A program made the translations under genes and the position numbers. From NCBI GenBank assembly GCA_023267375.1, contig JAHFNJ010000007.1, positions 1 to 50,290 of the forward strand: DNA of 50,290 bases. Direction: 5' to 3'. Shown in pieces: positions 1,859-49,751 of the stretch (within the stretch, counting starts at the first letter, position 1; each line of letters opens with the position of its first letter). The DNA comes from Candidatus Nomurabacteria bacterium (lineage in GTDB: Bacteria; Patescibacteriota; Minisyncoccia; Phycocordibacterales; UBA9973). Under the pieces are notes generated by a model. It searched no databases. It was not told the origin of the DNA and saw only the letters and a program-made list of their open reading frames with translations.

Positions 1859-3280
1859 ATGAAACGAACAGATGCAGATATAGATGAATTGCTGTCTCGG
1901 GGCGTTGGTGCGTTTATCGACCCAGACGGAACATTCAAGAAGAAACTCAAAACATCACCCGAGAAGGTGGTGATTAAATTTGGTGTGGATCTTACCCGCC
2001 CCGACCTTCACTTGGGCCATGCTGTGGTGCTCCGCAAACTCCGCCAGTTCCAGGATTTGGGCTGCAAGGTGATTTTTTTGATCGGCGACTACACGACCAT
2101 GATCGGCGACCCGACCGGCAAGAGTAAAGTTCGTCCAGAAATCAGCCAACAGGAAGTGGAAGAAAATATGAAGACCTTTTTGGCGCAGGTGAACAAAATT
2201 TTGAAAGTTGAATTTGATGCGAATGGCAATGTGATTGATACGCCTATCTTCAGTTGGATCAGAAACTCTGATTGGTTTGTCGGCGTGACTGATATCCAGC
2301 CAAGCAAAGATTCAAAAACAAACATCAACATCAACGAAGGCGGAAAAGACAAGAGTTACCCAATTCCTCCGGGAAGTTTTGTCGGCAAAGCAGTCCTCTA
2401 CGAGAATACTCGTATGCAAAAGACTCGTTTGAAAAACGAACAAATATTTACTCGCTCGCTTACGAATATCATTTCAGTGTTGCGCCATCTGACTCACGCA
2501 CGTCTCATTGAACGTGATATGTTCCAGGACCGCATTACCTCTGGCAACGAGCTCTATATGCACGAATTGCTCTACCCAGTGCTGCAGGGTATCGACTCTG
2601 AAGTGCTCCATCGTGTGTATGGCTCATGCGACCTTGAGGTTGGTGGAACCGATCAGACATTCAACATGCTTGTCGGCCGCGATGTCATGAAGATGAACAA
2701 ACAAGAACCGCAAGCAGTGCTCGCATTCGAACTCTTGGTGGGTACTGATGGTACAGAAAAAATGTCCAAGTCGCTCGACAACTATGTCGGCATCACTGAT
2801 GCGCCAGAAAATATGTATGGAAAAATCATGTCGATTCCTGACAGTGTGATTACGCACTATTTCGAACTCTGTACCTTTACGCCGACTGATGATGTACTTG
2901 AAATTAAAAAGACACTCGAGAAAGGTGCCAAGAATCCACGCGATATCAAAATGCGTTTGGCACGAGAAATTGTAGCGATTTACCATGGCGAAAAATTGGC
3001 TGAGCAGGCTGAAAGTAATTTTGTGCAGACGTTCCAAAAAGGTCTCGCTCCAGATACTATGCCAGAAGCATCAGCAAAAAAAGGTACAGCACTTTCTGAA
3101 ATCTTAATCACTGAAGGATTGGTAGAATCAAAATCAGATTTCCGACGACTCATTTCCGAAGGCGCTATTAAAATCATTTCAGGTGATGTTGAAGAAAAAA
3201 TTCTTGATCCATTGGTAGTAATATCAGAGACAACAATCGTGAAAGTAGGGAAGCATCGATTTGTAAAAATCACGGTCTAG
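1859..3280 (+). CDS. tyrS: Tyrosyl-tRNA synthetase
   Basis: PDLHLGH (HIGH) and KMSKS motifs, GGTDQ.FN, C-terminal S4-like domain (KVGKHRF). ATG at 1859 preferred over the ORF-track start at 1850. Confidence 0.97.
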   Translation: MKRTDADIDELLSRGVGAFIDPDGTFKKKLKTSPEKVVIKFGVDLTRPDLHLGHAVVLRKLRQFQDLGCKVIFLIGDYTTMIGDPTGKSKVRPEISQQEVEENMKTFLAQVNKILKVEFDANGNVIDTPIFSWIRNSDWFVGVTDIQPSKDSKTNININEGGKDKSYPIPPGSFVGKAVLYENTRMQKTRLKNEQIFTRSLTNIISVLRHLTHARLIERDMFQDRITSGNELYMHELLYPVLQGIDSEVLHRVYGSCDLEVGGTDQTFNMLVGRDVMKMNKQEPQAVLAFELLVGTDGTEKMSKSLDNYVGITDAPENMYGKIMSIPDSVITHYFELCTFTPTDDVLEIKKTLEKGAKNPRDIKMRLAREIVAIYHGEKLAEQAESNFVQTFQKGLAPDTMPEASAKKGTALSEILITEGLVESKSDFRRLISEGAIKIISGDVEEKILDPLVVISETTIVKVGKHRFVKITV

Positions 3281-3288
3281 TACAAAAA

Positions 3289-3341
3289 AAGCAAAACAAA
3301 AACCGTTCTCGACAATAGTCGGAACGGTTTTTGTTTTGCTT
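3289..3341. terminator. Long bidirectional intrinsic terminator between convergent genes
   Basis: AAGCAAAACAAAAACCGTTC-tcgac-aata-gtcg-GAACGGTTTTTGTTTTGCTT, a ~24-bp near-perfect stem with A/T tracts on both sides. Confidence 0.85.
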
Positions 3342-3370
3342 GACCTACTCCCGAGAGGGAGGTGCGAAGC

Positions 3371-3553
3371 TTAATTGAAGTCTCTTTCACTACTTAGAGA
3401 ATCTGACTCATCGTCATCATCATAACTGTCAGCATCCCCCAAATCGTCTGGGACGTCGTCTGCCAAGTCATCGGTTGCATCGTCAGTGAAGTCCTTACTG
3501 AAGTCAACTTCAGTGTCGGTTGGAGCGCTCCACTCATCATCGAGATAACTCAT
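3371..3553 (-). CDS. Small, very acidic hypothetical protein (60 aa)
   Basis: 25/60 residues are D/E. ATG lies 6 nt after a TAGGAT -10-like hexamer, and a terminator follows. Confidence 0.7.
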   Translation of the reverse strand: MSYLDDEWSAPTDTEVDFSKDFTDDATDDLADDVPDDLGDADSYDDDDESDSLSSERDFN

Positions 3554-3684
3554 AGATATATCCTAAAAACATACAATTATTTACTAAAAAACGACCTTAA
3601 AAATTACTTAAATTTTACGTGCATCCTTTTTAACAAATCGCGGTCCGCTTGGCAAGAGGCAACGGGGTTATCTGTGGAAAACTC

Positions 3685-6243: not shown

Positions 6244-7266
6244 TTAATGAATTAATTTATTTTGATGCATTTCTCCATCAGGATGATCGAATGAAAGGTG
6301 GTCGTATGCTTTTTGGGTGGCAACACGGCCTCGCGGTGTGCGCTCAAGGAGTCCGCGTTGGATTAAGTATGGTTCAACCACTTCTTCGATTGTTGATTCT
6401 TCTTCAGAAGTTGCCGCAGCGATGGTATTTAAACCGACTGGTCCACCACCGAATTTTTCAATAATTACTTTCAGGACATTGCGATCGGATTCAGAAAGAC
6501 CGAGTTCATCGATGCCGAGCAATGAGAGTGCCATGAAAACTGTTTTTTTATCCAAATCTTTTTTATGTACTTGTGCGTAGTCGCGACAGCGTTTCAAGAA
6601 ATAGTTTGCGGTACGGGGAGTGAAGCGGGCGCGCTTCGCTATTTCATCAATTCCACCTTTATCAATATTTATTCCCAAAATTTTTGCACTTCGCCCGATG
6701 ATTTTCATGATTTCCTCTTCGTTATAGAACTCGAGTCGGAAGACGCCGCCCGAGAAACGGGAGCGAAGCGGCGCAGAGAGGAGTGCGATACGTGTTGTGG
6801 CTGCGACGAGCGTAAACGGTGGCAGGTCAAGCTGGATGGTGCGGGCTGACGGGCCTTTGCCGATGATAATATCGAGTACTCCGGATTCCATGGCAGGGTA
6901 GAGCACCTCTTCAACCATTTTGTTGAGTCGATGGATTTCGTCGATGAAAATGATGTCGCCCGGGGAAAGATTGGTGAGAATAGACGCCAAATCGCCGACT
7001 TTTTCGATAGCCGGACCGGAGGTAATCTTGATCTGTCGGCCGGTTTCTTTGGCAATAAGGTGAGCCAGGGTGGTTTTCCCCAGTCCAGGAGGACCATAAA
7101 AGAGGATGTGTTCAGCAGGGTGGTTGCGCTCTTCAGCGGCCTGAAGGAGGATTTTAAGGTTCTGTTTAATGCTTTCTTGGCCGATATACTCTTCCCAGGC
7201 GCCTGGACGCAGGGTTTGGTCTAAAAAGAGCTCATCGGGGATATTTTTTTCTTTTTCTTCCATCAT
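6244..7266 (-). CDS. ruvB: Holliday junction branch migration helicase RuvB
   Basis: LRP...YIGQ, Walker A GPPGLGKTT, Walker B FIDEIHR, GLLERTPRGR. Confidence 0.98.
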   Translation of the reverse strand: MMEEKEKNIPDELFLDQTLRPGAWEEYIGQESIKQNLKILLQAAEERNHPAEHILFYGPPGLGKTTLAHLIAKETGRQIKITSGPAIEKVGDLASILTNLSPGDIIFIDEIHRLNKMVEEVLYPAMESGVLDIIIGKGPSARTIQLDLPPFTLVAATTRIALLSAPLRSRFSGGVFRLEFYNEEEIMKIIGRSAKILGINIDKGGIDEIAKRARFTPRTANYFLKRCRDYAQVHKKDLDKKTVFMALSLLGIDELGLSESDRNVLKVIIEKFGGGPVGLNTIAAATSEEESTIEEVVEPYLIQRGLLERTPRGRVATQKAYDHLSFDHPDGEMHQNKLIH

Positions 7267-11836: not shown

Positions 11837-14800
11837 ATGTATATGAATATAAAAAATCACATTTTCAAGTTTCTCACGGTCGGTCTCTTTGTTGCAGGGG
11901 CTCTTTTTGCCTACCCTTCATTTGCCCTTGCTGCATCTAACTTTAATGATAATGGTACTGGGTCAGACCTTCCGACTATCCAAGTTGCTAAATACAACGG
12001 ATCGTGTACCTCAAACTGTGGGTATAGTTCTAGTGTGTCAGTAAATCCAGGAGACATCGTTTCTGTGGCTATTTACTACCACAATACTGGACCAGACGCT
12101 GCTATTGATACTAAAGTAAAAATCTCTCCGACCTCTACTTCTTCAGGCACCTCTCACAGTATTTCAGGTTCAGTCCGCGCTTCAAACACAGCAAACTCTG
12201 GTAATGGATCTGCTACTGTTAACATCTCAAGTAGCCAAACACTTACCTACATGCCAGGCCAGACATTTTTCTATCCTGACAAAAGTTCCACAACGTACCC
12301 GATTCCTTTTGGGCAAAGTGGCAATGAAATTATAACTAGTGGTGGTCTTAATATCGGAACTATCGCCGCTCCATCTTCATGTAGTGGGTATCCTTCAATT
12401 ACTTTTTGTCACCAAGGATTTGTTATTGCTCACTATAAAGTAAGTACAACGACTCAGACGTATGCTTGTTCTGACGGCGTTGATAATGATAATGATGGTC
12501 TTATAGACTACCCACAGGATCCAGGGTGTAGCTCTTCTACCGATAATGATGAATACAATACTGTTGCTCCATGTACGATCAATAGTTTTTCCGCAAACCC
12601 AACAACGGTAAATTCAGGTAATTCATCTACACTATCTTGGTCTACCTCAAATTGTAACAACGTTACAATTCTTCCTGCAATCAATAATGTCCCAACGACA
12701 GGAAGTACTTCTACTGGTTCACTTTCACAAACAACCACATTTACATTGTATGCATACGGAACAAACGGTAATCCTACTGCGCAGACGACAGTAGTCGTAC
12801 AACAACAGCAATCTCCTTGCGCCATCAATTACTTTAATGCGAATCCGCAGATGATAAATACTGGTAACAGTTCCACCCTCTCCTGGTCGCTCTCAAACTG
12901 TACCAGTGCAAGCATCTCACCATCTATCGGTAGTGTGAACCCATCATCTGGAAATGTTTCTACAAATTCGCTTACCAATACAACAACCTACACACTTACT
13001 GCTTCCGGCAACGGTGGCAATCCAATTGCGCAGGTGACTGTTCAGGTGCTCGTTCCTCTTACTCCATGTACTATTAACTACTTCAATGGTAATCCAGGAA
13101 GTGTTAATCAGGGTGGTGCCGCAACTCTCTCTTGGTCAACTTCAAACTGTACCAGTGCTTCTATCTCACCATCTATCGGTAGTGTGAACCCATCATCTGG
13201 AAATGTTTCTACGGGAATACTTTCTCAAACACTTACTTTTATTTTGAATGCTTCCGGCAACGGTGGCAATCCAAGTGCGCAGGTGACGATTCAAGTAACA
13301 CCCCAACAGACTCAGTCGGTATGTAAGATCAATAGCTTTTCTGCATCACCAGGAACAGTAAATTACAATGCTGCATCAACACTCGTTTGGGCAACATCGG
13401 GTTGTGCGAAAGTAACACTGACTTCATTTGGCGCAGTAGCAGCAACAAGCAGTACCTCGACTGGAAATCTATCAGCAACAACTATTTACACGCTCACTGC
13501 ATATGATTCGAGTAATGTTCCACAGACTGAACAGGTAACTGTTCATGTTAATCAGCCATCGGGGCAGTGTACTATTAATAATTTCTCAGCATTACCATCA
13601 CAGGTAAGTAAAGGAGGTACTGCAACTCTCTCTTGGGCAACATCAAATTGTGTCAGTGTTTCTATTAATCCAATTGGTATTGTTTCTGCTACTGGGAGTA
13701 CGCAATCGAATGCGATTAATTTTGACACCACATTTACTCTTACTGCCTATGGCCAAACTGGTGGACCTGTTACTGAACAAGAATTAGTAACAGTAAACAA
13801 CAATAACAACAATAATAATACTTTGTTCTGTACCATCAATTCGTTCAAGGCTTCACCTTCAACAATTGATAAGTACGATTCTTCAAAACTTTCCTGGTCG
13901 CTCTCAAACTGTACCAGTGCAAGCATCTCACCATCTATCGGTAGTGTGAACCCATCATCTGGAAATGTTTCTACGGGATCATTGTCTCACGATACCACCT
14001 ATACACTCTCTGCTTCTGGTCAAAATGGTGCACCGTCACTTTCTCAGACCGTTCACGTACAATCAGGTAGTAATAACAATGATGATACATCAGCTCCAGA
14101 AGCAACAACAAAAAATGCTACAAATATAGACAGTGACTCTGCAACGCTTCGCGGGGAAATTGATACAGGTAATCAAGATACAGAATACTACTTCGAATAT
14201 GGTACGAATCGCAATAATCTAAACCACACGACAACTCGTCGCACTATTTCAGATTCAGATTCTGTTTCCGTGAATATCAACGGACTCTCTACTGATACGA
14301 CGTACTATTTCCGTGTTTATGCAACGAATGATGATGGTGATGATACAGGTTCTATTCTTTCATTTAGAACAGATGGATCACGAATCATTGATTACTATCC
14401 ACCTGCTCCTGTTCCAGTTGCAACTAACACATTCTATGTAACAACAACTGTAGCAACAAACATTGCAAGCACGAGTGCCCGATTAAACGGCGTAGCGAAT
14501 GCTGATATTGGAGGTACGATTTGGTTTGAGTATGGAACTGATCAGTCTGTGCCATTTACTACTCCACAGCAATCAATTGGTGCTGGATCATACCAGGTGC
14601 TGTCAGCTTTTGTTGGCACACTTTCTCCAAGTACAACCTACTACTACCGTATAGCAGGATCAAATTCATCTGTTGGCACCGTTCGTGGCGCTATCTCAAG
14701 TTTCCGAACACCAGCAGCTTCATCATCAACTGTCTTCGTGAATACAACCACAACCAACATTGGTGGTACTGGTTCTGGAAATATCATGCTTAAAATTGAA

Positions 14801-15325
14801 ACACCATTCGAAAATGTAAGCATGGGTAATACGGTGCCGTTTACGGTGACGTACAAAAATATTTCCGGAAAGGTGCTCAAAGATGCAGTGCTGACCGTGA
14901 CGTTGCCGGGCTTACTCCAATTCTCACAAGCAAGTACTGGTCTCTTTGATCCAACAACACGTGAATTGACGGTACGACTTGGTTCGCTTGATAAGAACGA
15001 AGAAGGAACAATGAATGTCGTTGCAATCGCTCTTGATCCAACAGGAACAAATGGTTCAGCGGTGACAACAGCAACACTCGTCTTCACACTTCCAAACGGC
15101 GCGCAAGATGAAGCGATTGCGTATGCATTCAACACAGTCACCATGAATAATATCCTCGCTGGTGCAGCACTCTTTGGTAGTGGGTTCCTTCCAAACAGTG
15201 CGCTTGGCTGGCTCATACTTATCCTCATCATTATTGCGATTATTGCGCTTGCTCGCCGACTGTATAGTCGTCCACGAGTGGCACATGTTCCACAGCCTCC
15301 GCATTACTCAACCCCAACGTATTAA
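11837..15325 (+). CDS. Large membrane-anchored surface protein with six Ig-like repeats, two Fn3-like modules and a DUF11-like domain
   Basis: Signal peptide; CSDGVDNDNDGLIDYPQDPGC Ca-binding-type motif; six ~82-aa repeats C[T/A/K]IN.F...TL.W...C; YYFRVYATN and YYYRIAG Fn3-like motifs; VPFTVTYKN; C-terminal TM helix. Confidence 0.85.
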   Translation: MYMNIKNHIFKFLTVGLFVAGALFAYPSFALAASNFNDNGTGSDLPTIQVAKYNGSCTSNCGYSSSVSVNPGDIVSVAIYYHNTGPDAAIDTKVKISPTSTSSGTSHSISGSVRASNTANSGNGSATVNISSSQTLTYMPGQTFFYPDKSSTTYPIPFGQSGNEIITSGGLNIGTIAAPSSCSGYPSITFCHQGFVIAHYKVSTTTQTYACSDGVDNDNDGLIDYPQDPGCSSSTDNDEYNTVAPCTINSFSANPTTVNSGNSSTLSWSTSNCNNVTILPAINNVPTTGSTSTGSLSQTTTFTLYAYGTNGNPTAQTTVVVQQQQSPCAINYFNANPQMINTGNSSTLSWSLSNCTSASISPSIGSVNPSSGNVSTNSLTNTTTYTLTASGNGGNPIAQVTVQVLVPLTPCTINYFNGNPGSVNQGGAATLSWSTSNCTSASISPSIGSVNPSSGNVSTGILSQTLTFILNASGNGGNPSAQVTIQVTPQQTQSVCKINSFSASPGTVNYNAASTLVWATSGCAKVTLTSFGAVAATSSTSTGNLSATTIYTLTAYDSSNVPQTEQVTVHVNQPSGQCTINNFSALPSQVSKGGTATLSWATSNCVSVSINPIGIVSATGSTQSNAINFDTTFTLTAYGQTGGPVTEQELVTVNNNNNNNNTLFCTINSFKASPSTIDKYDSSKLSWSLSNCTSASISPSIGSVNPSSGNVSTGSLSHDTTYTLSASGQNGAPSLSQTVHVQSGSNNNDDTSAPEATTKNATNIDSDSATLRGEIDTGNQDTEYYFEYGTNRNNLNHTTTRRTISDSDSVSVNINGLSTDTTYYFRVYATNDDGDDTGSILSFRTDGSRIIDYYPPAPVPVATNTFYVTTTVATNIASTSARLNGVANADIGGTIWFEYGTDQSVPFTTPQQSIGAGSYQVLSAFVGTLSPSTTYYYRIAGSNSSVGTVRGAISSFRTPAASSSTVFVNTTTTNIGGTGSGNIMLKIETPFENVSMGNTVPFTVTYKNISGKVLKDAVLTVTLPGLLQFSQASTGLFDPTTRELTVRLGSLDKNEEGTMNVVAIALDPTGTNGSAVTTATLVFTLPNGAQDEAIAYAFNTVTMNNILAGAALFGSGFLPNSALGWLILILIIIAIIALARRLYSRPRVAHVPQPPHYSTPTY
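12881..12963 (+). repeat. 83-nt exact direct repeat (copy 1, in protein repeat 2)
   Basis: Identical to 13892-13974; most of it also recurs at ~13142-13212. Confidence 0.9.
13892..13974 (+). repeat. 83-nt exact direct repeat (copy in protein repeat 6)
   Basis: Identical to 12881-12963. Confidence 0.9.
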
Positions 15326-31708: not shown

Positions 31709-31794
31709 GGGGTAGGAACCTTGATTCCCGTCGTAAGATACATTTGTGGTCAGGAATAACTTTTATTCCATCGAACAAAAAATTTCTCGATTTT

Positions 31795-31960
31795 GGCAGG
31801 AATCTTTCGTTACACGAACAGTATACCTTTTCCATGATTTTGAACAGAAGTTCAAAATCATAAGGAAAAGCTTTTCGATTCCTGACACAAAGTGCGCAGG
31901 CACTTTGTTCCGGGCGCACATATTAAAAAGACCGACATATAGTCGGTTCATTTAAATATG
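31795..31960 (-). repeat. tRNA-Lys-linked mirror element
   Basis: Inverted copy of the tRNA 3' half (31874-31884 plus 31910-31924) split by a 25-nt hairpin (31885-31909); distal sense copy GATTCCTGCC at 31795-31804. Confidence 0.75.
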
Positions 31961-32033
31961 TGCGCCCGGCAGGAATCGAACCTGCGACCATCTCCTTAAA
32001 AGGGAGCTGCTCTACCGACTGAGCTACGGGCGC
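31961..32033 (-). tRNA. tRNA-Lys (anticodon TTT)
   Basis: Cloverleaf: GCGCCCG/CGGGCGC acceptor, anticodon loop CTTTTAA, GGTTCGATTCC T-arm; CCA not encoded. Confidence 0.95.
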
Positions 32034-41127: not shown

Positions 41128-41199
41128 GGCTCCGTCGTTCAATGGATAGGACGTAACTTTGCGGAAGTTATGATGCAGGTTCGATTCCTGCCGGAGTCA
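41128..41199 (+). tRNA. tRNA-Arg (anticodon GCG)
   Basis: GGCTCCG/CGGAGTC acceptor, TAACT-TTGCGGA-AGTTA anticodon arm, GCAGG-TTCGATT-CCTGC T-arm; CCA not encoded. Confidence 0.92.
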
Positions 41200-41409
41200 C
41201 TAGTACAAAAATGAGCCGTCTCGAAAGAGGCGGCCATTTTTGTTTAGTGACTCCGAGCGAGCAAACTGCTTTGCTCGCGTGCAGGAATCGAACAGCGGAG
41301 TCATGTTTTGCAAGCTTGCAAAACAGACGAGCTGGTGCCCAGACAAAACTTTTTGACGAAAAAGTTTTAGTCGAGGGCGATAAGCGTACTCGCGGTCCTG
41401 CCGGAGTCA
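41200..41409 (+). repeat. tRNA-Arg-linked mirror element
   Basis: Inverted copy of the tRNA 3' half (41245-41255 plus 41281-41293) split by a 25-nt hairpin; 51-nt core 41294-41344; sense copy TCCTGCCGGAGTCA at 41396-41409. Confidence 0.85.
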
Positions 41410-41418
41410 TCAGGGCTT

Positions 41419-41446
41419 CAAAAAAGCGCCCTCGGGCGCTTTTTTG
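41419..41446. terminator. Bidirectional terminator
   Basis: CAAAAAAGCGCC-ctcg-GGCGCTTTTTTG. Confidence 0.85.
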
Positions 41447-41460
41447 GATTCTATTTAAAT

Positions 41461-41925
41461 TTAAAATCCTAAGAAATCCATGATTCGATGTGACGCAGGT
41501 TCATCCATTTCTCGTTCTTTCATTTTTTTAAGAAGTGAGGTCTGGACCCGTTTCCAGTCAGCATTTCCTAGGGGGAGTGTGACGAGAGGCATAAACATGC
41601 GATCTGTTTCGAGGATAAGCTTGGGTTTGCGGTCTTTTGCAACAATTGCAAAACTTTTTATATGTTTGTAGTCATACGTGTAATGACTCACTTTCACACC
41701 ACGTTCAGTTATTTCAAAAGTCACTATTTGTGGCTTGCGGACACTATAGACAACAAGAAGTGAGACAGCAACCACAATGAAAACAGCAAAAAGAAAATTG
41801 CCGTAGATGATCGAAGCAACAACGGTACAAATTCCGATAATCCCAAGTGCCCAAAACCAGTCGGGCGACTTTGGTCGATCCTCATATTCAAGTGCTTCCC
41901 AGCTGATATGATCTCCAAATTGCAT
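41461..41925 (-). CDS. Membrane protein, DUF5673-like
   Basis: ISWEALEYEDRPKSPDWFW, two TM segments, then a PH-like soluble domain. Confidence 0.65.
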   Translation of the reverse strand: MQFGDHISWEALEYEDRPKSPDWFWALGIIGICTVVASIIYGNFLFAVFIVVAVSLLVVYSVRKPQIVTFEITERGVKVSHYTYDYKHIKSFAIVAKDRKPKLILETDRMFMPLVTLPLGNADWKRVQTSLLKKMKEREMDEPASHRIMDFLGF

Positions 41926-44945: not shown

Positions 44946-45065
44946 ACTGACAGGGTAGCATGAAAATGGAGGAATTAAAGAGATTCGCCCGCGACTAAAA
45001 AATCGCCGAAACAGGATGAGATTCTCCCCGTACCGGGGCAGTACAGGTTTCCGAAAAAATAATAC

Positions 45066-45253
45066 AGCGAGATTCGCCCGCGACTCTCGCCTCGTCGTCA
45101 CTCAGCTCGGTCTGGGCACCAGCTCATCTGTTTCGCAAGCTTGCGAAACATGATTCCGCTGTTCGAATCTCACACGCGAAGTGCGCAGGCACTTCGCTCG
45201 CCTCCGCAAACAAAAATGGCCCCGACCAAAGTCGGAGCTCATTTTTGTATTTG
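45066..45253 (-). repeat. tRNA-Ser-linked mirror element
   Basis: Inverted copy of the tRNA 3' half (45161-45173 plus 45199-45210) split by a 25-nt hairpin; 51-nt core 45110-45160; short distal sense copy 45069-45076. Confidence 0.85.
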
Positions 45254-45340
45254 CGGAGGCGGTGAGATTCGAACTCACGGTCCACTTTCATGGACGACAG
45301 TTTTCAAGACTGTTGCCTTAAACCACTCAGCCACACCTCC
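45254..45340 (-). tRNA. tRNA-Ser (anticodon TGA)
   Basis: GGAGGTG/CGCCTCC acceptor, G discriminator, ACAGT-CTTGAAA-ACTGT anticodon arm, long variable arm; CCA not encoded. Confidence 0.95.
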
Positions 45341-46191: not shown

Positions 46192-46305
46192 ATGAACTCC
46201 GAAACGAAAGTGTGCCAAAACTGTCCCGATTTTCTTGAATTCATTAGAAAATCGAGGATCCGCGATTCTGATCTTGATAGTCAGAATCGGGATAAAAATA
46301 TATGA
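46192..46305 (+). pseudogene. 37-codon micro-ORF: remnant N-terminus of the Cys-rich family, interrupted by an in-frame palindromic insert
   Basis: MNSETKVCQNC resembles the starts of the two downstream paralogues; its TGA overlaps the ATG at 46302. Confidence 0.55.
46224..46292. mobile_element. 69-bp miniature palindromic element with 8-bp terminal inverted repeats
   Basis: TCCCGATT...AATCGGGA enclosing two CGATT...AATCG hairpins; its removal restores AAC TGT AAA AAT (N-C-K-N). Confidence 0.55.
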
Positions 46306-48050
46306 ATACTAGTAGTAGTGAAAAGAGAATATGTCAGAACTGCAAACAAAACTTCACCATCGAACCGGATGATTTTTCTTTTTACGAGAAAATTAAGGTT
46401 CCTCCGCCGACGTTTTGTCCGGAGTGTCGTATGGTTAGACGTCTTGTTTGGAGAAACGAACGCTCGTTGCATCGAAGAGAGTGTGGCCTCTGTAAGAAAA
46501 GTATAATCAGTATGTATAAAAATGACGGAGCTCCTGTTTATTGCAGTGAGTGTTTTAATGGTGATCAATGGGACCCATATACCTATGCGATTGACTACTC
46601 TTTTTCCAAGAATTTTTTTGAACAGATTTGTGAACTTTTTAATAAAGTACCTCGATATTATAAGTATGGTTTTGGTAATCTAATAAATTCAGAATATACA
46701 AATTACACTAAAGACAACAAAAATGCATACCTCTCTTATTCGGTAACAGGATGTGAAGATGTTGCGTATTCTGCGATCATAGACAACTCAAAAAATTCAA
46801 TTGATTGTCTTGCTGTAATGAATGTGGAGAGTTCCTCGTATTGTGTTGATGTTGAGAAAAGTTACAATGTTCACCACGTTATTCAGTCTATTAACTGTGT
46901 TGACTCATTTTTTCTTTACGATTGTGCAAATTGTACTAATTGCTGCCTAAGTTCAAATCTCCGCAATAAACAGTATTATTTCAAAAATCAAAGAATGTCT
47001 AAAGAAGATTACTTTAAGGCGATTGAAAGCCTCCATCTCAATACTTATTCTGGTGTTGAAAAAGCAAAAGATAAATTTCAGGAGATTCTTAAAAACGCGA
47101 TACATAAATATGGGTCAATATACATGGCTGTGAATGTAACTGGCGATTATATTCACGACGCGCGGAATGTAAAATACGGCTTCGACACAAATAGCGCGGA
47201 GAATATTTCTTATGGCAATCGAGTGATCGACGTCAAAGATTCCATGGATATAACAGGAGTGGGTTTTAAAGCGGAAATGATCTATGACTCCGTAGCGGTA
47301 TCTGGGACCACATTTAATGATCGTTTTTGTTATATAACAACTCAGGGGTGCCGGGATTGTGAGTATTCATTGCTTCTAAAAAATTGCTCGGATTGTTTTG
47401 GTTGTGTAAGCCTTACGAATGCAAAGTATTGTATTTTCAATAAGCAATTTACCAAGGAAGAGTATTTTTTGATGGTAGAAAAAATTAAGAAACAGATGAT
47501 GGAAATGCCATATGTTGATGCAAAGGGAAGAGTGTATATGTACGGCGAATTTTTCCCCTACGAGTTATCTCCTTTTGGATATAATGAAACAAATGCCCAC
47601 GACTTTTTTCCTCTGTCAGAAGAAACGGCTAACGAACGCGGCTATAATTGGTTCAAGAGAGAAAAAAGGGACTACAAGATAACGAAAGATTCTAATGATT
47701 TACCAGATAGTATTCTTTATGCAGACGATTCTATTCTTTCTGAAACTATCGCTTGCCCGAATAATGGGGACGCAACAACTCAATGCACCACAGCATTTAA
47801 GTTAACTCCTGAAGAGTTGCAGTTTTATCGACAAAAGAATCTTCCATTGCCACGGTTTTGCCCTAACTGTCGTCACTACGAGCGTTTGAAGTATAGAAAT
47901 CCGATGCGGCTCTATCAGCGTTCTTGTATGTGTGCACAAGAAGGACACGATCATTCAGGGAAGTGCTCAAATGAATTTGAAACAAGTTATGCGCCGGATC
48001 GTCCCGAGAAAGTATATTGCGAAAGTTGTTATCAGAAAGAAGTGCTTTAA
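46302..48050 (+). CDS. Cys-rich zinc-ribbon-repeat protein (paralogue 1)
   Basis: CQNC, CPEC, CGLC, CSEC; C..C..C repeats (CSDCFGC); C-terminal YAPDRPEKVYCESCYQKEV. Confidence 0.85.
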   Translation: MNTSSSEKRICQNCKQNFTIEPDDFSFYEKIKVPPPTFCPECRMVRRLVWRNERSLHRRECGLCKKSIISMYKNDGAPVYCSECFNGDQWDPYTYAIDYSFSKNFFEQICELFNKVPRYYKYGFGNLINSEYTNYTKDNKNAYLSYSVTGCEDVAYSAIIDNSKNSIDCLAVMNVESSSYCVDVEKSYNVHHVIQSINCVDSFFLYDCANCTNCCLSSNLRNKQYYFKNQRMSKEDYFKAIESLHLNTYSGVEKAKDKFQEILKNAIHKYGSIYMAVNVTGDYIHDARNVKYGFDTNSAENISYGNRVIDVKDSMDITGVGFKAEMIYDSVAVSGTTFNDRFCYITTQGCRDCEYSLLLKNCSDCFGCVSLTNAKYCIFNKQFTKEEYFLMVEKIKKQMMEMPYVDAKGRVYMYGEFFPYELSPFGYNETNAHDFFPLSEETANERGYNWFKREKRDYKITKDSNDLPDSILYADDSILSETIACPNNGDATTQCTTAFKLTPEELQFYRQKNLPLPRFCPNCRHYERLKYRNPMRLYQRSCMCAQEGHDHSGKCSNEFETSYAPDRPEKVYCESCYQKEVL

Positions 48051-48074: not shown

Positions 48075-49751
48075 ATGAATACAGAAACAAGGCAATGTAA
48101 AAAATGTAATCAAAATTTTACGCTCGATGCGGATGACTTTTCTTTTTACGAAAAAATGAAAGTGCCAGCTCCACATGTCTGCCCTGATTGTCGATTTAAG
48201 ATGCGGGCACTTTTTCGCAATGAGATGTCACTTTATACTGGACGCAAGTGCGGGTCGTGCCAGAAAAATATTGTGACAATGTACAATCCAAAATCTCCGT
48301 ACACTGTGTATTGTCTCGATTGTTACAAAGGCGATTCATGGGACCCACGAAGTTATGCGAAAGAATATGATTTTAATCGCCCCTTTTTTGAGCAACTGAA
48401 AGAGTTGCTCCTGCAAGTTCCGAAAGCGTCCTTGTTCGATGCCGCGGGGTATGGCCCAAATGTGAATAGCGATTTCACGAATGCGAGCGCACTTTTAAAA
48501 AATTGTTACTTCCTTTTCAATAGCGGCCCAGATGAAGAGTCACTCTATTCTCGCGGCATTGATTTATGTAATGAAGTCAGCGATGCATATTTTTGTGTTA
48601 AAGATGAACAGTGCTATGAGATCATCAATACACATGAATGCAACAAGGTGATGTGGGGGCAAAATCTCAAAGGGTGCGTTGATTGTTCTTTGTGTGAAGA
48701 CCTTTCAGGTTGTACGAATTGTTTTGGTTGCGTTGGTCTCCGCAACAAGTCATATCATCTTTATAATGAACAGGTCTCAAAGGAAACCTATGAGATATTT
48801 ATGGAATCTTATCGAGGTTCATATGTGCGACAACAAGAAGAACAGGAAAAATTTAAAAAATTCAGATTGCAATTTCCTAAGCGAGAAAATCATAATTTAA
48901 AAACAATTGATTCGATTGGAGACTATCTTCACGAAACAAAGAATGTAAAACAGTCTTTTGAAATAAGACTGGGTGGTGAACATTCTAAATACTGCTTCTC
49001 AGCAAAAGGCGTTAAAGATTCATATGGGACGACAGGGTATAGCGTAAAGTCGGAAATGCTGCTCGAGTGTGTTTCGACCGGGAATTCTTCTCGTGTTATT
49101 GGCAGTTATGCTATTGATCAATCAACGGATATTTTCTATTCTTTTTCGTGCCGACCAAGCAACGCACATTTGATTGGATGTGATTCAATGAAGAATGCTG
49201 AGTACTGTATTCTCAACAAACAGTATTCAAAAGAAGAGTACGAGAAAATATATGAACATATAGCGAAAGAACTGGTGGAATTGGGAATTCACGGGCTGAT
49301 GATGCCTCCAGAGCTTGCTCCGTTCGGTTATAACGAAACATTGGGGAACGACAATATCATGCTTACCAAAGAAGAAGCATTGGCTGAAGGGTTGCCATGG
49401 CAAGACGACATTCAGATGACAAAAGGGAAGGAGACAATGAAGCCTGAGCAAATTCCAGATCACATCAAAGATGTACAAGATGGAATTGTAAAAGAGATTT
49501 TGAAATGCATCGACTGTGAACGTAACTATAAAATTACCGAACAGGAACTTGGATTTTATCGGAAGATGATGTTGCCGATTCCACGTAAGTGCTTCTATTG
49601 CCGCCACAAAGATAGAATTGTTCGTCGTGGACCATATAAGTTCTGGAATCGAAATTGCGCGCACTGTAATAAAGAGATTGTGACCAATTATGCGCCCGAA
49701 CGACCCGAAATCGTTTATTGCGAGAGTTGTTATCAGCAGGAAGTGATCTAA
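48075..49751 (+). CDS. Cys-rich zinc-ribbon-repeat protein (paralogue 2)
   Basis: Same architecture: CKKC, CPDC, CGSC, CLDC, CTNCFGC, YAPERPEIVYCESCYQQEV. Confidence 0.85.
   Translation: MNTETRQCKKCNQNFTLDADDFSFYEKMKVPAPHVCPDCRFKMRALFRNEMSLYTGRKCGSCQKNIVTMYNPKSPYTVYCLDCYKGDSWDPRSYAKEYDFNRPFFEQLKELLLQVPKASLFDAAGYGPNVNSDFTNASALLKNCYFLFNSGPDEESLYSRGIDLCNEVSDAYFCVKDEQCYEIINTHECNKVMWGQNLKGCVDCSLCEDLSGCTNCFGCVGLRNKSYHLYNEQVSKETYEIFMESYRGSYVRQQEEQEKFKKFRLQFPKRENHNLKTIDSIGDYLHETKNVKQSFEIRLGGEHSKYCFSAKGVKDSYGTTGYSVKSEMLLECVSTGNSSRVIGSYAIDQSTDIFYSFSCRPSNAHLIGCDSMKNAEYCILNKQYSKEEYEKIYEHIAKELVELGIHGLMMPPELAPFGYNETLGNDNIMLTKEEALAEGLPWQDDIQMTKGKETMKPEQIPDHIKDVQDGIVKEILKCIDCERNYKITEQELGFYRKMMLPIPRKCFYCRHKDRIVRRGPYKFWNRNCAHCNKEIVTNYAPERPEIVYCESCYQQEVI

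Follow-up and report, generated by a model that had tools for sequence, protein, structure and literature searches.

The stretch of DNA analyzed here, referred to below as the window, comprises 50,290 nt of contig JAHFNJ010000007.1 (assembly GCA_023267375.1, Candidatus Nomurabacteria bacterium). ARAGORN and Rfam (Rfam 15) concur that it holds exactly three tRNAs, for Lys, Arg, and Ser, and behind each of them, on the same strand, lies an element that carries a reverse complement (here called the mirror) of the end of that very tRNA. These elements are members of a widespread and uncatalogued family of non-coding modules of ~130-210 nt, located directly 3' of tRNA and tmRNA genes. In each module the final ~20 nt of the gene recur in inverted orientation, often together with part of the trailer, and this copy is interrupted exactly at the T-stem/acceptor junction by a conserved 25-nt hairpin; this is followed by a conserved core of covarying hairpins and, in about half of the copies, by a 15-22-nt direct copy of the tRNA 3' end, often with a second terminator behind it.

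tRNA-Arg(GCG) occupies positions 41128-41199 (+; ARAGORN, Rfam), and its final 20 nt, from the T-loop to the discriminator (41180-41199, +), constitute the segment that is mirrored and repeated. Continuing on the plus strand, the first terminator-like hairpin T1 (41213-41235), flanked by an A-tract on its 5' side and a T-tract on its 3' side, is where the long inverted repeat has its tip. The reverse complement of the trailer, discriminator, and acceptor 3' strand (41243-41255, TTTAG-TGACTCCG) is separated from that of the T-stem 3' strand and T-loop (41281-41293, GCAGGAATCGAAC) by the conserved 25-nt hairpin hp2 (41256-41280), which sits where the complement of tRNA position 66 would otherwise adjoin that of position 65 and whose loop reads CUGC on the tRNA-sense strand and GCAG on the opposite strand. 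The conserved "type A" core (41294-41395), with hp1 (41305-41324), GAGCTGGTGCCCAGAC (41329-41344), and hp3 (41345-41368), leads to a 14-nt sense copy of the T-stem 3' strand, acceptor 3' strand, and discriminator (41396-41409, TCCTGCCGGAGTCA). A second terminator-like hairpin, T2 (41417-41448), lies after the element and also at the end of a convergent open reading frame (ORF; 41461-41925).

The other two loci are on the minus strand. tRNA-Ser(TGA) (45254-45340; ARAGORN, Rfam) is followed by an element spanning 45059-45240 that consists of T1 (45218-45240), the trailer/acceptor mirror (45199-45210), hp2 (45174-45198), the T-arm mirror (45161-45173), a type A core (45077-45160, with hp1 at 45130-45149 and GAGCTGGTGCCCAGAC at 45110-45125), and a decayed direct copy of 8 nt (CGAATCTC, 45069-45076), after which comes a U-rich tail. 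Behind tRNA-Lys(TTT) (31961-32033; ARAGORN, Rfam), the element at 31788-31947 has T1 (31931-31947), the trailer/acceptor mirror (31910-31924), hp2 (31885-31909), the T-arm mirror (31874-31884), a "type B" core with hp1 (31834-31861) flanked by CTTTTCC and GGAAAAG, and a decayed direct copy of 10 nt (GATTCCTGCC, 31795-31804). The Arg and Ser elements are about 75-77% identical and share a 127-nt stretch at 75% identity, whereas the Lys core is different. At all three loci the mirror matches the reverse complement of the T-loop-to-discriminator segment of its own tRNA at 19-20 of 19-20 nt. A preliminary description of the window, made from the sequence alone, had given the order as tRNA, hairpin, split mirror, further hairpins, and sense copy, and the coordinates bear this out at 3/3 tRNAs; the 25-nt hairpin that it placed at the T-stem/acceptor junction can now be located between tRNA positions 65 and 66. 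The second sense copies of 14, 8, and 10 nt that it listed are also present, but in Ser and Lys they amount to no more than the T-loop/T-stem portion of a repeat that has decayed.

Related elements were collected from other genomes, one genome per species, by a scan for the pattern TTCGA-N6-7-hairpin, which gave at least 120 loci. Among the pattern matches listed from these loci, the stem pairs completely over its variable 5 bp in 110/123. A covariance model, R1, was built solely from other genomes with the window excluded, and was searched on the first 100 scan loci and then on the remaining sources, which included five viral loci and E. coli rrnB. The model identified 140 copies in the former set and 28 in the latter, a total of >160 in about 115 genome loci. 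On the window, R1 gives exactly three strong matches, which are the three elements (111.6, 107.6, and 47.0 bits; the next best match scores 6.8), and the hp2 motif (ACRCRA-N5-GCAG-N5-TYGYT) occurs with 0 mismatches at the three element sites only. At the gathering threshold of Rfam 15 no family passes on the window elements and the three tRNAs alone are called, while at E<=10 the window yields only sub-threshold matches that are terminator look-alikes.

Ninety-one of the 140 copies lie directly after an ARAGORN tRNA, 15 after another copy in tandem, and 9 after T-loop-containing ends that ARAGORN missed; the rest are at contig edges (7) or are orphans (18). The carriers comprise at least 18 tRNA types as well as tmRNA, and across these, as between orthologous tRNA-Arg genes, the complement tracks the differences in the gene, in agreement with the earlier claim that each element is customized to its own tRNA. 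The hosts are mostly Patescibacteria (the candidate phyla radiation, CPR; Paceibacteria-type metagenome-assembled genomes, MAGs), joined by Elusimicrobia MAGs and by isolate genomes of Burkholderia, Trinickia, Pandoraea, Limnobacter, and Herbaspirillum. Our literature searches found no earlier description of such elements in CPR.

Several individual loci illustrate the range of these arrangements. In locus L001, one of the ends that ARAGORN missed, the element (3105-3243) follows a tmRNA gene (3278-3644, Rfam), and its mirror and 20-nt direct repeat are matched to the tmRNA 3' end; L019, L031, L091, L072, and L029, with an acceptor ending in "...CATCTCCA", resemble this case and are candidates for further tmRNA elements. 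Perfect tandem duplications of the entire unit occur in L074 (3420-3718) and L039 (1703-2013). The Trinickia unit measures 149 nt, and every unit ends in ...CCTGGGCACCA followed by its own terminator.

That the layout might reflect chance similarity, an assembly artifact, or a decayed tandem tRNA duplicate is a notion to which we give practically no credence. A relaxed search for the split mirror, independent of the hairpin, found it behind 66/168 tRNAs in related loci compared with 3/168 shuffled controls, and the gap is exactly 25 nt in 56/66 matches; chance is therefore excluded. Homologous elements are present in >100 independent assemblies, including those of isolates, and a second ENA contig has a Lys locus identical to that of the window, which disposes of the concern that the copies arose in assembly. 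A tandem duplicate would indeed present acceptor 5' strand, arm, T-stem, and 3' end in the same succession; however, where the two tRNA strands differ, the mirror agrees with the complement of the 3' strand 17 times and with the 5' strand 3 times (the Arg mirror of the window reads GACTCCG, not GGCTCCG), and the T-loop and trailer are mirrored as well. A decayed tandem tRNA copy or pseudogene was rejected on these grounds.

The elements are not a fixed companion of tRNA genes. The statement that every tRNA is followed by one is true of 3/3 in the window, but in related loci it applies to about 17-23% of bystander tRNAs, i.e., tRNAs merely sharing a locus with an index copy. Burkholderia lata has three identical tRNA-Leu(CAG) genes, of which the first is followed by an intact unit, another by a decayed one, and the remaining gene by no unit at all. 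In L004, a syntenic relative of the window, the Arg and Ser genes have elements but the Lys gene does not, which indicates that elements are gained and lost between relatives. The stretch downstream of that tRNA-Lys (880-1000, -) has only a terminator hairpin and then GCCCTC, possibly a 6-nt remnant of a mirror. Orthologous loci were also sought in metagenomes by way of the neighboring amidohydrolase, and neither of the 2 loci found had a tRNA.

The elements share a conserved scaffold. RNAalifold, run on 21 type A copies, yields 22 pairs, 16 of them with compensatory changes. Among 138 distinct copies, 94.2% of cells are paired vs. 70.3% in shuffles, double changes occur at all 22 pairs, and the covariation score is 0.509 vs. 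0.168 in shuffles and <=0.116 in slid controls, figures that come from an alignment fitted to the model itself, which favors structure. Non-Watson-Crick cells, when read on the tRNA-sense strand, are G.U in 127 and A.C in 43 instances (6 vs. 0 within hp2), and therefore the folded strand is the tRNA-sense strand. Between the element and copies in certain other genomes identity amounts to 82-86%, compared with only 65-68% for the flanking genes. Other products of the locus were considered. One was an RNA of the antisense strand that ends at the shared bidirectional terminator and in which the mirror would be a sense copy of the tRNA 3' end; the wobble bias (127 vs. 43) led us to reject it as the main product. 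A 17-codon frame is common to the Arg and Ser cores, starting from a conserved CAUG (41301-41355, MFCKLAKQTSWCPDKTF; 45099-45153, MFRKLAKQMSWCPDRAE). A small peptide is unlikely, as CAUG is CAUA in L014, L051, and L080, and the changes in the hairpins are compensatory at the RNA level and not synonymous. No Rfam ribozyme family scored and no hammerhead core was seen, nothing deeper having been looked at for ribozymes. A T-box leader was rejected as well, given that there is no Rfam T-box match, the complementarity is to the T-arm/acceptor strand, and the element is downstream of a tRNA gene.

On the sense strand, the order of parts is the complement of the acceptor 3' strand, the hairpin with the CUGC loop, the complement of the T-stem 3' strand, the core, and the direct copy. 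This topology is that of a tRNA in which one hairpin takes the place of the D and anticodon arms and the T-loop has a large insertion. When the element is folded alone, the predicted fold pairs the mirror with the direct copy, and orphan copies retain the match between these two. tRNA-like structures that serve as handles for processing or recognition are familiar from the tRNA-like domain of tmRNA and from mascRNA-type 3' ends. The likeness consists in an acceptor/T-stem helix, assembled from distant segments, that closes a larger RNA with a tRNA-identical 3' end. The predicted handle of the present family would differ in being copied from the adjacent tRNA and not generic, in having no intact T-loop, and in its 25-nt hairpin in place of the D and anticodon arms.

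The tRNA-specific ends behave differently from the core helices. A full direct repeat is found in 45/85 loci, with an exact length of mostly 15-22 nt. The direct copy is identical to the tRNA over 14 nt in 45/63 loci, and the mirror is exact in 22/63. Mismatches of the mirror have no preference for wobble pairs (17 G.U vs. 27 A.C to one copy and 10 vs. 13 to the other), unlike those of the core helices. In L006, L076, and L118 the mirror spells CTCG against a CGAG acceptor while both direct copies agree. We infer from these patterns, and from a mirror that complements the 3' strand and runs on into the local trailer, that the core is selected as a folded sense strand, and that the ends are made and refreshed by copying at the DNA level, after which they drift. 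A retroviral-type primer-binding site, which would be complementary to the 3' 18 nt of a tRNA, was rejected, because the direct copy has CCA only where the gene encodes it and no copy of a mature tRNA is therefore involved. A separate layout is seen in L092, where an unsplit mirror (GCTCCCAGAGGGATTCGAAA, gap 0) is located 47 nt downstream of tRNA-Arg(TCG) (6310-6382, -), as in the E. coli RtT repeats discussed below; it may be intermediate between the split-mirror elements and RtT.

The relation of the mirror to the tRNA itself, as opposed to the direct copy, could suggest that the module is a cis switch, an option already named in the preliminary description. In a read-through precursor the mirror would capture the T-arm, acceptor 3' strand, and trailer in a ~45-bp helix with the 25-nt hairpin as a side branch. 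The outcome might be a mark for double-strand-specific cleavage, or the 5' part of the tRNA might pair with the direct copy instead, to give a tRNA with a giant T-loop insertion. We consider either form of this switch unlikely, though it is thermodynamically possible and accounts for several features. In minimum free energy folds of RNAs reaching from the tRNA to the mirror, the 3' half of the tRNA is paired with the mirror at each of the three window loci; in the Arg fold, the direct copy in turn takes up the tRNA 5' acceptor strand and T-stem, leaving the D and anticodon arms undisturbed. The extension of the mirror matches the trailer of the first copy at >=7/8 nt in 28/59 loci and does not match the trailer of the second, the mirror is exact in 26 loci without a full direct repeat (the Ser and Lys loci of the window among them), and the direct copy is more faithful to the tRNA than the mirror is. 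Some loci, moreover, have a ~20-nt spacer and no terminator, which would put the mirror in every transcript there. However, the lack of a G.U preference (17 G.U vs. 27 A.C) among mirror-tRNA mismatches argues against selection of this helix at the RNA level, a folded tRNA is kinetically stable, and at other loci a terminator precedes the mirror. Tandem and orphan copies would be unable to act on a tRNA. Furthermore, the element is not needed for maturation, given that it accompanies only ~20% of bystander tRNAs and is missing from paralogous tRNA-Leu genes.

The cores have a history of their own. The nearest relatives of a core sit behind other tRNA types (the window Arg core is closest to L014, Ser, at 0.84 and to L051, Glu, at 0.80), and orthologous tRNA-Arg(GCG) genes have a type A core in the window and a type B core in the syntenic L004. 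As the cores do not follow tRNA identity, they are probably exchanged among loci, whether they move or undergo gene conversion by way of the hairpin and T-loop flanks that they have in common. Movement is the essence of a rival explanation, according to which the module is a non-autonomous mobile DNA element of a miniature integrative kind, or resembling a miniature inverted-repeat transposable element (MITE), that targets tRNA/tmRNA 3' ends with a recombinase supplied in trans. The direct copy would then be an att site or target duplication running from the T-loop to the end of the gene. In single-stranded DNA the hairpin of mirror and direct copy would imitate a double-stranded target, with the 25-nt hairpin and core as recognition features of the folded DNA. 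Recognition of folded DNA has precedents in integron attC and CTX-phage attP, and the 3' ends of tRNA and tmRNA genes are classic integration sites.

We regard this explanation as possible but on balance rather improbable, in all of its parts. It suits the position of the elements at tRNA and tmRNA 3' ends, the bounding direct repeats (14 nt in Arg, and 14 identical nt in 45/63 loci), the mirrors that depart from the acceptor of the neighboring tRNA (L006, L076, and L118), and the lack of wobble bias in mirror mismatches. It also suits the tandem arrays (L074, L039), a decayed copy in L049, the orphans, the presence of the same core subtype behind different tRNAs and of both core types at the Arg orthologs, and the patchy distribution across phyla. 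On the other hand, no integrase, HUH, or other transposase lies in or adjoining the elements of the window, which at 130-210 nt contain no conserved ORF, and near-identical copies at different tRNAs are absent apart from tandem units and one duplicated pair in L046. The cores surpass the flanking genes in conservation over distant genomes, as would be expected of a selected RNA, and gene conversion through the shared flanks could explain core exchange too. We know of no recombinase that recognizes about 18 different tRNA genes. A collection of 2.9 million viral contigs gave 5 pattern matches, of which the model accepts 1 as a true copy, and a phage origin is unlikely for the same reason. The preliminary description had offered a tRNA-targeting mobile element kept matched by template switching as one option; what survives of it is a non-autonomous, tRNA-linked element matched by DNA-level copying, in keeping with the core exchange, the tandem, decayed, and orphan copies, and the unbiased mirror mismatches. 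No transposase or integrase was found.

Two orphan elements, L030 (95-239) and L062 (244-396), have a common sequence, GCAGTRTTCTTGAATTAGTCC..., directly beside the mirror. The matching tRNA-Tyr of L030 is ~2.1 kb upstream, and L062 contains an ORF (605-997) that looks transposase-like by eye. An insertion seems to have separated the tRNA from its element at the terminator hairpin.

Known classes of palindromic repeats and MITEs (REP/REPIN, ERIC, Correia, RPE) have fixed ends and many near-identical dispersed copies, and are often transcribed with neighboring genes. They resemble the present family in being small, non-coding, and hairpin-rich, and in that they can be tandem and can decay. The ends of the tRNA-linked modules, however, differ from locus to locus because they are copied from the adjacent tRNA, and their copies are diverged and nearly all tied to tRNA/tmRNA genes. 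Membership in the MITE class was rejected, since the window copies are about 75-77% identical (Arg/Ser) or have another core type (Lys) and there are no fixed ends.

Integrase-borne islands and prophages offer a second comparison; their att sites reportedly lie in tRNA and tmRNA genes, with a T-loop sublocation among them, as described by Williams in 2002. Shared features are the 3'-end direct repeat starting from the T-loop, the use of both tRNA and tmRNA genes, and a patchy occurrence with decayed remnants. The "island" of the window family, in contrast, measures only ~150-200 nt and has no integrase. It includes the site in inverted orientation as well as a conserved core that covaries, and uses one scaffold for about 18 tRNA types, a breadth not known for any single integrase family. 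The segment from the T-loop to the 3' end of tRNA genes is used by many integrases. The idea that the module is a decoy or cruciform that hides tRNA attB sites from the integrases of phages or integrative and conjugative elements draws on this coincidence, and the inverted repeat could indeed extrude as a cruciform, but this is circumstantial. The real attB remains intact and accessible, and neither the conserved covarying core nor the strand bias would be necessary for a decoy. We found nothing in support of this option, which had been put forward in the preliminary description, and consider it highly improbable.

A closer precedent exists in the tRNA-linked repeats (TLRs) of E. coli, studied earlier, it is said, by Egan and Landy in 1978 and by Rudd in 1999, and reviewed by Stenum et al. 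in 2021 (PMC8144298). TLRs were first described in E. coli in 1978, and the copies in tRNA operons are without known function to this day (PMC8144298). E. coli K-12 has 22 copies at ten loci, and an early claim of a role in the stringent response was retracted (PMC8144298). TLRs lie just downstream of tRNA/rRNA genes, and the final 18-19 bp of the preceding gene recur at their 3' end; some sit between two terminators, and rrA/B/F, which are located behind 5S rRNA, have been shown experimentally to be made by read-through of T1 (PMC8144298). In E. coli tyrT-tyrV, the 178-nt RtT repeats (RF00391, rttR) each end with the last 19 nt of tRNA-Tyr, with which a 10-nt complement (GGGGAAGGAT) forms the outer stem, and the rrnB copy is laid out as gene-T1-element-repeat-T2.

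The window family resembles TLRs in several respects. All three window elements are directly downstream of a stable-RNA gene and on its strand. The repeat of the gene end measures 15-22 nt in the family and 18-19 bp in E. coli; in the window it extends for 14 nt through the discriminator in Arg, while Ser and Lys retain 8 and 10 nt of the T-loop/T-stem part only. Tandem occurrence, the two-terminator layout (in Arg), and a GCGAAGC motif are common to both, and, as in RtT, a complement is predicted to pair with the repeat as an outer stem. There are also differences. The window family has a full 19-27-nt mirror (T-loop, T-stem, acceptor, and trailer) that forms a palindrome with the tRNA around the first hairpin, and this mirror is split at 65/66 by a conserved 25-nt hairpin that occurs in neither RtT nor rrB, nor among the TLR features given in PMC8144298. 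Its direct repeat is optional, and its hosts are CPR, Elusimicrobia, and Burkholderiales, not enterobacteria. RF00391, which scores 133-137 bits on four E. coli copies, has no match on the window region at E<=10 and none on the CPR and Burkholderia loci at E<=0.1, and R1 has none on E. coli tyrT and rrnB. In the absence of a model match in either direction, we file the modules as the same kind as TLRs, but not as the same family or as members of RF00391. It follows that the earlier statement that no named family has this layout is correct as far as Rfam 15 is concerned but too strong otherwise, E. coli TLRs being an already described class, and for the same reason the label "new system" is too strong.

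Two further observations concern E. coli TLRs. The GCGAAGC mini-hairpin occurs 25 times on the sense and 3 times on the antisense strand of the elements in L001-L100, about 9-fold over background; it is also the tip of a hairpin in E. coli rrB (GTTGCGAAGCAAC, L127 266-278) and is present in RtT (L121), and may be a common feature of TLR-type elements. E. coli rrB (L127 238-265) holds TCCGCCGGGAGCGGATTTGAAC, the reverse complement of which resembles the T-loop, T-stem, and acceptor 3' end of a tRNA and not 5S rRNA. This hints that a mirror left over from a former tRNA neighbor may persist in E. coli TLRs as well.

Taken with the folding evidence, the analogy with TLRs suggests the explanation that we favor, although we see it as evenly poised between right and wrong. 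The module would be an RNA of the TLR type, transcribed by read-through and closed in a tRNA-like manner, with tRNA-specific ends copied at the DNA level. At the Arg locus, terminator-like hairpins are found on the sense strand both before and after the element, and no promoter-like site is present between tRNA and element at the window loci. The module RNA would be made when polymerase reads through the first terminator of the tRNA, as for E. coli rrA/B/F, and where this first hairpin is missing the module would be in every transcript. The mirror and 25-nt hairpin would substitute for the 5' two-thirds of a tRNA. Pairing of the mirror with the direct copy would create a tRNA-like acceptor/T-stem helix and a three-way junction that closes the module, and this closure could give 5' and 3' ends that the cellular tRNA end-processing enzymes can cut. 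The ends themselves would be copied from the neighboring gene by duplication and palindrome-correcting template switching, and not kept by selection at the RNA level, while the core would be exchanged among tRNA loci.

A number of points weigh against this explanation. We infer read-through transcription and processing by analogy, and the RNA could be scarce given the resemblance of the first hairpin to an efficient terminator. Among the window loci, the direct copy is long enough for closure of the acceptor helix in Arg only; Ser and Lys have lost it and yet have a perfect mirror. The loci in which the mirror is exact without a full direct repeat indicate that the relation of mirror to tRNA is independent of the closing stem. 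The closing helix would run on for ~7 bp at the place of the T-loop, and recognition by RNase P and RNase Z is uncertain as a result. G.T pairs are tolerated in single-stranded DNA too, and the strand bias is compatible with a folded single-stranded DNA and hence is no proof of RNA. The fit of the 138-copy alignment to its own model counts here as well, as does the lack of sequence or model homology to E. coli TLRs.

A more speculative proposal, which we think quite unlikely, would make the mirror and the 25-nt hairpin a locus-programmable guide. Together with cognate positions 54-73 and the trailer they would form a tRNA-shaped three-way junction, either directing the element to tRNA/tmRNA 3' ends or swapping in the direct copy. 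If this were true, it would amount to base-pair-guided spread of a non-coding element, or, should the 3' end be swapped in read-through transcripts, to a second tRNA isoform with a giant T-loop.

Elsewhere in the window, the ORFs that neighbor the elements encode an amidohydrolase, a DUF5673 protein, an M43 peptidase, and a SpoU methylase. An ORF of 1162 aa (11837-15325, +) has internal repeats of ~249 nt at 12608-13989 and weak Pfam matches to DUF11, fn3, and a purple-acid-phosphatase-N-like domain, and is likely a surface protein. A pair of neighboring paralogous ORFs, about 560-580 aa long (46302-48050 and 48075-49751, +), have 70% nucleotide identity at their starts and 77% at their ends; the first (46302-48050) has no Pfam match.

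The elements account for many of the "partial tRNA" matches and long palindromes that are seen behind CPR tRNA genes, and they merit a covariance model of their own. The family is structurally more explicit than the E. coli TLR examples. Its precise mirror split, the covariation on the sense strand, and the distinction between a selected core and ends copied from DNA lead to concrete hypotheses on how such elements are formed, folded, and cut, which can be put to the test at the bench thanks to the copies in Burkholderia, Trinickia, Pandoraea, and Herbaspirillum. Overall, the TLR-like phenomenon is no enterobacterial curiosity; a scaffold that copies the 3' end of the preceding tRNA or tmRNA has spread through CPR and has reached the cultivable Burkholderiales.

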